From Alphaproteobacteria bacterium (lineage in GTDB: Bacteria > Pseudomonadota > Alphaproteobacteria > CAAHEQ01 > UBA3637): a DNA stretch of 64,000 nt. Made by a program: the position numbers and the translations under genes. Shown here one piece after another: positions 51,462-51,703 of the stretch. The first letter of the stretch is position 1, and every line of letters starts with the position of its first letter. Location of the stretch: the NCBI GenBank assembly GCA_045655105.1, contig JAZOOQ010000059.1, positions 10,422 to 74,421 of the forward strand, written 5' to 3'. Under the pieces are notes generated by a model. The model did not search any database. It saw nothing but the letters and a program-made list of their open reading frames with translations, and was not told where the DNA came from.

Positions 51462-51490
51462 TTGACATAAAAATCATTTTGTGACATACT
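51462..51490 (+). promoter_or_regulatory. sigma70 promoter (extended -10) driving a structured leader
   Basis: TTGACA (51462-51467), 17-nt spacer ending TGa, then CATACT (51485-51490). Confidence 0.55.
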
Positions 51491-51496
51491 TTTTTC

Positions 51497-51703
51497 GTAT
51501 CAGATGATTACTGATATGAGGTTTAGAACCCTCTAGATCGTTGTCTGCGAAAGCAGATGTAAAAAACTACCTTTTTGCCTATGGCAGGAAGGTAGTAAAA
51601 TAGGTTTATATAACTGAATATACTACACTATTCGATCAATAGGTTCTAACTTCCTGCCACCTCTCATCAAGGTGGTATTTGTTTTAATTGAAAGGAAGTT
51701 GAA
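51497..51703 (+). promoter_or_regulatory. candidate structured 5' leader (riboswitch-/attenuator-like) or small RNA
   Basis: Nested helices counted by hand. TATCAG/CTGATA (51498-51516). Long-range GTT(T)AGAACC/GGTTCTAAC (51521-30 with 51642-50) plus GATCG/CGATC. TCTGC-GAAA-GCAGA (51544-57). CTACCTT/AAGGTAG (51567-95). GGCAGGAAG (51583-91) is complementary to CTTCCTGCC (51650-58), whose CTTCCT also complements the SD AGGAAG (51693-98). CCACCT-7nt-AGGTGG followed by a U-rich tract (51657-85). Confidence 0.4.

Follow-up and report, generated by a model that had tools for sequence, protein, structure and literature searches.

A probable two-state leader RNA, resembling sRNA-Xcc1 in its core, upstream of a secreted-protein gene in an alphaproteobacterium

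sRNA-Xcc1 (Rfam family RF02221), a small RNA (sRNA) first found in integron cassettes of Xanthomonas campestris, is the closest catalogued RNA to the element reported here, a leader of ~190 nt in front of the gene at position 51704 of a 64,000-nt stretch of alphaproteobacterial DNA (assembly GCA_045655105.1, contig JAZOOQ010000059.1, positions 10,422 to 74,421; hereafter the window). sRNA-Xcc1 was verified as an 88-nt RNA by Northern blot (PMC2996969), and in Xanthomonas integron cassettes it is located upstream of symE (10.1101/2025.06.18.660453). Comparison of the two RNAs revealed a common architecture, a three-way junction that is closed by an outer helix of ~9 bp and bears two inner stem-loops, and this architecture was supported by covariation among copies of the leader. 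The best RF02221 score was 48.9 bits against a gathering cut-off of 53, and 0 of 80 genomes of the bacterial family that carries the leader exceeded the cut-off.

The leader family is absent from the Rfam catalogue, with no Rfam family at threshold. A search of the whole window at gathering scores gave no match to the leader, a search of positions 51300-51800 at E ≤ 10 returned only noise near the terminator of rplQ, and 20 other copies matched only at adjoining tRNAs; these results agree with the original prediction, made from the letters of the window, which had recognized no known riboswitch class. No published account of this leader RNA was found in the literature searched.

Judged by the aligned copies, compensatory evolution has maintained two sets of pairings, their overlap with an intrinsic terminator and a link to the Shine-Dalgarno (SD) sequence of the downstream gene. 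We consider it likely that the leader is bistable and attenuates the transcription as well as the translation of the secreted-protein gene at 51704.

Helices of the leader and their covariation

Covariation was analyzed in a model alignment of 100 distinct copies, to which the counts below refer. The covariance model was built from 17 homologues, and the columns of helix X, helix Pa and kissing loop K lie outside this search model. The helices and strands of the window copy are as follows; 'stop' and 'go' refer to the minimum-energy fold and to the RNAalifold consensus fold, respectively.

51497-51517, plus strand: P0, 5' hairpin GUAUCAG / CUGAUAU; 6 of 6 pairs compensatory, 91.9% of cells paired
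51505-51508, plus strand: 5' side of K, UGAU in the P0 loop; its kissing partner is AUCA (51666-69), located in the loop of the terminator; 88.8% paired
51518-51533, plus strand: Pa, hairpin GAGG (51518-21) / CCUC (51530-33), whose loop contains the P1 5' strand; 95% paired
51524-51530, plus strand: P1 5' strand UAGAACC, partner GGUUCUA (51642-48); 99.8% paired, 6 of 6 tested pairs compensatory
51536-51540, plus strand: P2 5' strand GAUCG, partner CGAUC (51633-37); sequence different in almost every copy
51544-51557, plus strand: P3, variable hairpin UCUGC-GAAA-GCAGA of the minimum-energy fold; stems of relatives differ yet stay paired
51567-51595, plus strand: P4, 'stop'-side hairpin in which the U-rich CUACCUUUUUGCC (51567-79) sequesters GGCAGGAAGGUAG (51583-95)
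51583-51591, plus strand: X 5' strand GGCAGGAAG, SD mimic, pairing with CUUCCUGCC (51650-58) in the putative 'go' form
51592-51626, plus strand: P5a, GUAGUA (51592-97) / UACUAC (51621-26), enclosing hairpin P5 (51603-15); 96.8% paired, 6 of 6 pairs compensatory
51628-51642, plus strand: P6, CUAU (51628-31) / AUAG (51639-42), whose loop is the P2 3' strand; predicted by RNAalifold
51650-51658, plus strand: X 3' strand CUUCCUGCC, a shared strand that may pair with the X 5' strand ('go') or complete the terminator stem with its last bases ('stop')
51655-51685, plus strand: intrinsic terminator, stem UGCCACCU / AGGUGGUA (51655-62 / 51670-77), loop CUCAUCA (51663-69), U tract (51678-85)
51693-51706, plus strand: translation start region, SD AGGAAG (51693-98), AGGAAGUU (51693-700), ATG at 51704

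Across the alignment, 95.7% of cells were paired and 38 of 40 pairs exhibited compensatory changes, whereas 0 of 500 shuffles reached the observed pairing and sliding the partner strands by 1-3 columns left 33-47% of cells paired. The variable hairpins P3 and P5 were among the supported helices. P2 occurred as 95 distinct sequences in the 100 copies, and its best helix had a mean length of 7.5 bp with its own partner but 4.9 bp with the partners of other copies; its covariation was also recovered on alignment A2. Kissing loop K was represented by the variants UGAUG/CAUCA (27 copies), UGGUG(U)/(A)CACCA (8) and UGACG/CGUCA (1). About 93% of cells in P6 were paired, and one of its pairs was UA in 77, CG in 10 and AU in 3 copies.

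Every feature listed in the original prediction was found where it had been placed, including the GAAA hairpin (51544-57) and the second hairpin (51567-95); relatives' leaders were also found and their helices covary, as it had proposed to check. Its closing long-range helix stands as P1 and P2 (51524-40 with 51633-48), but the GAGG/CUUC extension of P1, which belongs to the minimum-energy fold, was lost in variant classes, where GAGG/CCUC of Pa covaries instead. In Pa, the A-U pair was replaced by G-C in 16 copies, and the variants UGGG/CCCA and UAGG/CCUA were present. Pa and P1 are either alternatives or form an H-type pseudoknot together.

The three-way competition that had been read from the window sequence was examined strand by strand. 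GGCAGGAAG (51583-91) and CTTCCTGCC (51650-58) are complementary without mismatch, and the resulting helix X was paired in 98.7% of cells and compensatory in 7 of 9 pairs. The same 5' strand is also claimed by P4, which shares bases with X and P5a, and both pairings have been maintained: at least 7 of the 9 X 5' bases pair with an upstream strand in the local fold of 91 copies, P4 tracks the variants of the X 5' strand, and a mean of 7.9 X 5' bases were paired in this way compared with 4.6 when the upstream strand was shuffled. For the outer part of P4, P5a is the rival helix. By sequestering the X 5' strand, P4 could act as an anti-antiterminator.

The second point of competition lies at the terminator, which a terminator scan detected as an 8-bp stem with 4 G-C pairs (51655-77) followed by TTTGTTTT, the hallmarks of an intrinsic terminator. 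Its stem covaries, its loop is conserved and its U tract is conserved in the consensus of the copies. As predicted, its 5' arm is overlapped by 51650-58, and the last two bases of this C-rich strand covary with both the G-rich strand of X and the 3' arm of the terminator; at column 379 of the alignment, which holds the last but one base of the X 3' strand, this base and its X and terminator partners formed the set A-U-A in 35, G-C-G in 30 and G-U-A in 17 copies.

The third leg, pairing of the 51650-58 strand with the SD AGGAAG (51693-98), likewise held up. The SD region AGGAAGUU finds its complement in AACUUCCU (51648-55; the X 3' strand and the two A's before it), and the SD motif and the C-rich strand change together: GGAAG was found in 40 of 81 copies with CUUCC, GGAUG in 3 of 7 with CAUCC and GGAGG in 3 of 5 with CCUCC. 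The CAUCC matches include two further copies of this genome in which GCGGAUG spans the start codon. GGAAG preceded 35 of 79 leader-linked open reading frames (ORFs), compared with 3.1% of 1,146 ORFs of this genome. Because the SD motif tracks the C-rich strand, we regard the X 5' strand as an SD mimic and the X 3' strand as an anti-SD strand. Masking of the SD by the 3' strands of P2 and P1 showed no overall excess for the window type (4.70 vs 4.44 bp), and a weak excess was confined to copies without GGAAG (10 of 47 vs 11%).

Analysis of the downstream genes revealed an ORF of at least 50 aa beginning within 32 nt of the element in 79 of the 100 copies, with a median gap of 18 nt, which leaves no room for a second promoter. 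Among these 79 linked ORFs, 24 were prepilin-type, 18 lipobox-like and 26 otherwise signal-peptide-like, and Pfam assigned outer-membrane barrels to 13 of 66 downstream genes as well as some glycosyltransferases. In the other 21 copies, no ORF of at least 50 aa starts within 60 nt.

The helices assemble into two folds. Fold A ('stop') consists of P0, P1, P2, P3, P4 and the full terminator, and is the minimum-energy structure in 98 of the 100 copies; fold B ('go') consists of P0, Pa, X, P5a, P5, P6 and a 4-bp stub of the terminator stem, and in its nested form 95.5% of cells were paired and 29 of 33 pairs compensatory. The local rival sets, X with P5a and the stub against P4 with the full terminator, were only -0.6 ± 4.6 kcal/mol apart. 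The predicted transcript of 214 nt folded with -73.5 kcal/mol, compared with -42.1 ± 4.5 kcal/mol for 200 dinucleotide shuffles (z = -7.0), none of which (0 of 200) folded as well. The leader presents both a structured, covarying domain with conserved unpaired junction bases and an expression platform whose alternative pairings include the terminator and the SD, two of the features that characterize riboswitches.

Proposed switch and alternative readings

From these sequences we infer that the two pairing sets are used as a switch, with 'stop' as the ground state. In the 'stop' state, the U-rich strand (51567-79) would lock GGCAGGAAGGUAG in P4, while P1 and P2 would zip the 5' half of the leader onto its 3' half and leave CUUCCUGCC free. 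The last bases of CUUCCUGCC would then complete the 8-bp terminator, and RNA polymerase would halt at 51678-85; in transcripts that escape, AACUUCCU may pair with AGGAAGUU and mask the SD. In the 'go' state, CUUCCUGCC would pair with GGCAGGAAG to form helix X and GUAGUA with UACUAC to form P5a, and these two helices would build a three-way-junction core like that of sRNA-Xcc1. With the base of the terminator removed and the anti-SD strand occupied, transcription would continue and the SD would be free.

The trigger would be a positive input that stabilizes the 'go' core. A small ligand or ion is a tentative candidate, a protein or RNA factor a possible but doubtful one, and temperature or folding kinetics an unlikely one. 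Antitermination by a NusG paralogue of the RfaH, UpxY or LoaP type was rejected, since just one NusG-domain gene is present in the 97%-complete genome, in which a CsrA gene was not found either. A leader-peptide attenuator was likewise rejected: the short ORFs of the leaders show no conservation of start, length or peptide, and 6 copies lack an ATG ORF. AUG is frequent in the P0 loop because the kissing-loop motif contains it.

Several observations weigh against a two-state attenuator. The start site, termination and read-through are each deduced from sequence, and about half of the copies lack a GGAAG SD. Nearest-neighbour energies place the nested 'go' fold ~12 kcal/mol above 'stop', and the 'go' form therefore needs help from some factor. 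Helix X and the terminator overlap by just 2-4 bases, and P1 and P2 might coexist with X as pseudoknots in a single compact fold, in which case P4, Pa and P6 would be intermediates. In addition, the title of Chen et al. 2011, as cited in 10.1101/2025.06.18.660453 and 10.1101/427781, reportedly calls sRNA-Xcc1 a trans-acting sRNA.

A rival reading is that the element is a stand-alone sRNA gene like the annotated sRNA-Xcc1, whose terminator always works and whose ~190-nt product acts in trans or is structural, the downstream gene being expressed by leak or unrelated to it. In favor of this reading, the element comes with a promoter and a good intrinsic terminator, the kissing loop links the two ends of the RNA (5' hairpin and terminator loop) as in a finished, terminated product, and the core resembles RF02221, whose founding member is the 88-nt RNA seen on Northern blots (PMC2996969); the 21 copies without a nearby ORF also fit. 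However, the short distance to the ORF in the other 79 copies leaves no space for another promoter, the SD is element-specific and changes in step with the C-rich strand, and a constitutive sRNA would have no use for P4 or for a terminator base that covaries three ways. We therefore consider this reading improbable.

A single pseudoknotted fold that does not switch, with P1, P2, X, P5a and the kissing loop formed together and P4, Pa and P6 as co-transcriptional intermediates, would make the leader constitutive, for example in its effect on mRNA stability or translation efficiency. P1/P2 and X occupy different bases and are compatible as pseudoknots, and all of these helices covary within the same sequences. 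On the other hand, P4 needs the same bases as X and P5a and both are maintained, and the terminator base shares bases with X and both covary; moreover, a conserved terminator between a promoter and its sole gene is hard to explain without conditional read-through. The probability of a single fold is accordingly low.

Known RNA thermometers are short hairpins of simple build that cover the SD itself and are poorly conserved in sequence. A thermometer in which host temperature melts P4, a hairpin rich in G-U pairs and with a run of U's, so that helix X forms and surface proteins are turned on, would suit the controlled genes, which encode surface proteins of a host-associated bacterium, and P4 of the window copy does pair UUUUU with GGAAG through two G-U pairs in a fourU-like manner. 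It is nevertheless very improbable: the leader is a multi-helix RNA of ~190 nt that sequesters an SD mimic rather than the SD, the competing helix X would melt too, and the strong conservation of its unpaired junction bases makes a simple thermometer unlikely.

Pilin and surface-protein regulons are typical of riboswitches for cyclic di-GMP (c-di-GMP; GEMM). Although the pilins, adhesin-like outer-membrane proteins and glycosyltransferases downstream of the many leader copies resemble such regulons and one GGDEF protein is encoded in this genome, a new class of c-di-GMP riboswitch is hardly credible and was rejected, since GGDEF presence does not follow RNA presence (no GGDEF was found in four RNA-carrying genomes that are 95-98% complete, G002, G005, G018 and G068, whereas all eight RNA-less genomes have the domain) and neither the c-di-GMP-I nor the c-di-GMP-II model (RF01051, RF01786) nor any other in Rfam matched.

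Locus, promoter and spread of the family

The two-state attenuator that we favor is located between the rplQ terminator and a lipoprotein-like ORF of 225 aa, and the following features of the window define its transcription unit.

51323-51349, plus strand: intrinsic terminator of the upstream rplQ (ribosomal protein L17, identified by Pfam); 11-bp stem and T run in the terminator scan
51462-51490, plus strand: sigma-70-type promoter; -35 box TTGACA (51462-67), 17-nt spacer, extended -10 box TG-a-CATACT (51482-90)
51704-52381, plus strand: putative controlled gene from the ORF list; 225 aa, N-terminal signal, lipobox-like ...FLLTNC

Because the rplQ terminator sits upstream of the leader, the leader is considered a transcription unit of its own. 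The near-consensus extended -10 promoter noted in the original prediction was borne out with a score of 10 of 12 plus the TG extension, and transcription is predicted to start at ~51497. In the nearest relative (L023), homology of the cassette starts at 51496, 1 base before this predicted start, and the leader together with the 225-aa gene forms the unit in common with relatives. The ORF list contained no ORF of at least 40 aa overlapping 51301-51703 on either strand, and the 225-aa protein had no family match in Pfam or NCBIfam. The leader was less AT-rich than its surroundings, as had been noted (G+C 36.5% vs 17.7% in the upstream spacer). Across the family, a promoter of the form TTGnnn-N16-18-TAnnnT was found in 72 of 99 copies, and in 63 of those the end of the -10 box lies 3-4 nt upstream of model position 1. 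Elsewhere in the window, the L17 protein (50821-51300) has an extended C terminus, ~40 aa in which Lys, Ala and Glu are abundant, and a variable region downstream encodes a 255-aa protein consisting almost entirely of ankyrin repeats (54625-55392).

The genome (a 1.58-Mb assembly, 97% complete) contains 6 copies of the leader detected by the model, and the RF02221 search added a possible seventh; this sub-threshold RF02221-like element (G000:C50:10063-10150, 31.8 bits) was unreported by the leader model. One of the copies, before an outer-membrane beta-barrel gene, is close to the window copy, with many paired changes between the two. The closest RpoA matches of this genome were all from uncultured Alphaproteobacteria of animal guts and rumen. 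The model matched 72 of the 80 genomes and 15 of the 16 genera of the bacterial family, with 1 to at least 32 copies per genome; 9 more alphaproteobacterial families with small genomes were positive among 150 sampled, and a phylum-wide sample gave a single weak match.

Several leader-plus-gene cassettes lie directly downstream of tRNA genes (L104, L115, L139), and the window cassette follows rplQ at a spot that differs among species of the genus. On account of these tRNA-adjacent sites and the species-variable spot, the cassettes appear to behave like accessory insertions. A mobile repeat without RNA function was ruled out by the compensatory changes and by P2, which is copy-specific yet always paired. 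A phage origin was also rejected, as 61 of 61 pattern matches in IMG/VR were by chance and 0 were model matches, and no plasmid match for the leader was found. A true copy (L265; 126 bits) with the GGGAG/CUCCC variant of helix X was present in MT837328.1 (4378-4570), a human-faecal virome scaffold labelled 'UNVERIFIED Bacteriophage sp.', which is probably bacterial DNA.

Two further arrangements were observed among the copies. At L151 (G102:C24:17680-18143), two leader copies are arranged in tandem ~110 nt apart, both with the CUUCU/AGAAG variant of helix X. In L117, L200, L115 and L119 (G010, G014, G015), a conserved insert of ~200 bp separates the leader terminator from a pilin gene; its ends carry imperfect inverted repeats of ~20 nt (AAACGTACG..TGCAAC / GTTGCA..GTACGTTT), and it could be a miniature inverted-repeat transposable element (MITE) or an invertible segment.

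Comparison with sRNA-Xcc1 and known leader RNAs

The RF02221 model aligned to the 3' core of many leader copies. In this alignment its outer 9-bp helix falls on X, and its first inner stem-loop, with junction bases of the AAUA type, falls on P5a/P5. The counterpart of its second hairpin is P6, which was assigned to the 'go' fold and the sRNA-Xcc1-like core. In contrast to the leader, the RF02221 model covers 87 nt and includes neither the 5' domain (P0, Pa, the 5' strands of P1 and P2, P3 and P4) nor the terminator. The SD of the window type would be masked by the X 3' strand and not by the P6 loop. The window copy gave no RF02221 match at E ≤ 10 or in the whole-genome search, and other leader copies scored 31-38 bits. 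Sub-threshold RF02221 matches were present in 24 of the 80 family genomes, compared with 0 of 14 control genomes, and matches above the cut-off were found in 24 of 151 genomes of the phylum sample. The best match in the family, at 48.5-48.9 bits, was a variant leader missed by the leader model (L267:1390-1620 and L268:1390-1620, in G023 and G004); the 5' domain recurs in its start region (CUAAACA-AAGG-AUACAAGA), and the hairpin after its core lacks a U tract.

At 12 bona fide RF02221 loci, the 3' half of the core was complementary to an upstream segment (8.7 nt vs 6.3 in mismatched pairs) and to a segment adjacent to the start codon (7.4 nt vs 5.5). At such loci in other Pseudomonadota (L273-L284), the upstream and start-codon segments repeat each other, as in CCGAAAA...CAAACAG of L283. 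As read from these sequences, bona fide RF02221 loci appear to have the same design as the leader family, and because their segments repeat each other and complement the 3' half of the core, the annotated 'sRNA' may be the core of a cis-acting leader. It is conceivable, though doubtful, that the leader family and the bona fide RF02221 of Beta- and Gammaproteobacteria form one superfamily of self-contained switches, each made up of promoter, start-site mimic, core and terminator, with the three-way-junction core as aptamer. If so, these switches would travel with accessory genes (surface-protein cassettes, integron cassettes and islands), one signal would in gut Alphaproteobacteria control the entire set of pilin, lipoprotein and outer-membrane protein genes, which can number 30 or more in a genome of 1.5 Mb, and sRNA-Xcc1 would have to be reinterpreted as a leader that acts in cis.

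In these uncultured Alphaproteobacteria of gut and rumen, with genomes of ~1-2 Mb, the same RNA precedes up to at least 32 pilin, lipoprotein, outer-membrane and glycosyltransferase genes, and for this reason a single input probably governs most of the host-facing surface of the cell. Two alternative folds that are both recorded in covariation are rare. The kissing loop between the 5' end and the terminator, and the co-evolution of SD mimic, anti-SD strand and SD, are of interest to RNA biology as well, and the likeness to sRNA-Xcc1 suggests that what is widely annotated on mobile elements as an 'sRNA' may form the core of a switch that acts in cis.

Among known systems, the leader resembles the S-box, T-box, pyr and trp leaders in that four strands whose pairings are mutually exclusive lie by an intrinsic terminator directly upstream of a gene and are backed by covariation. 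Unlike these leaders, it has no Rfam match, its promoter travels with it, and up to at least 32 copies per genome stand before unrelated genes; no effector of their types (ligand, tRNA, protein or leader peptide) was identified among the candidates examined. It shares with c-di-GMP-I/II riboswitches the occurrence of many copies before pilin, adhesin and surface-protein genes, but differs from them in the lack of a model match and of GGDEF co-occurrence. In cobalamin riboswitches, aptamer and regulatory hairpin are connected through a kissing loop; the leader has no similarity to them in sequence or fold, yet in the same manner the loop of its 5' hairpin contacts the loop of the expression platform, the terminator.

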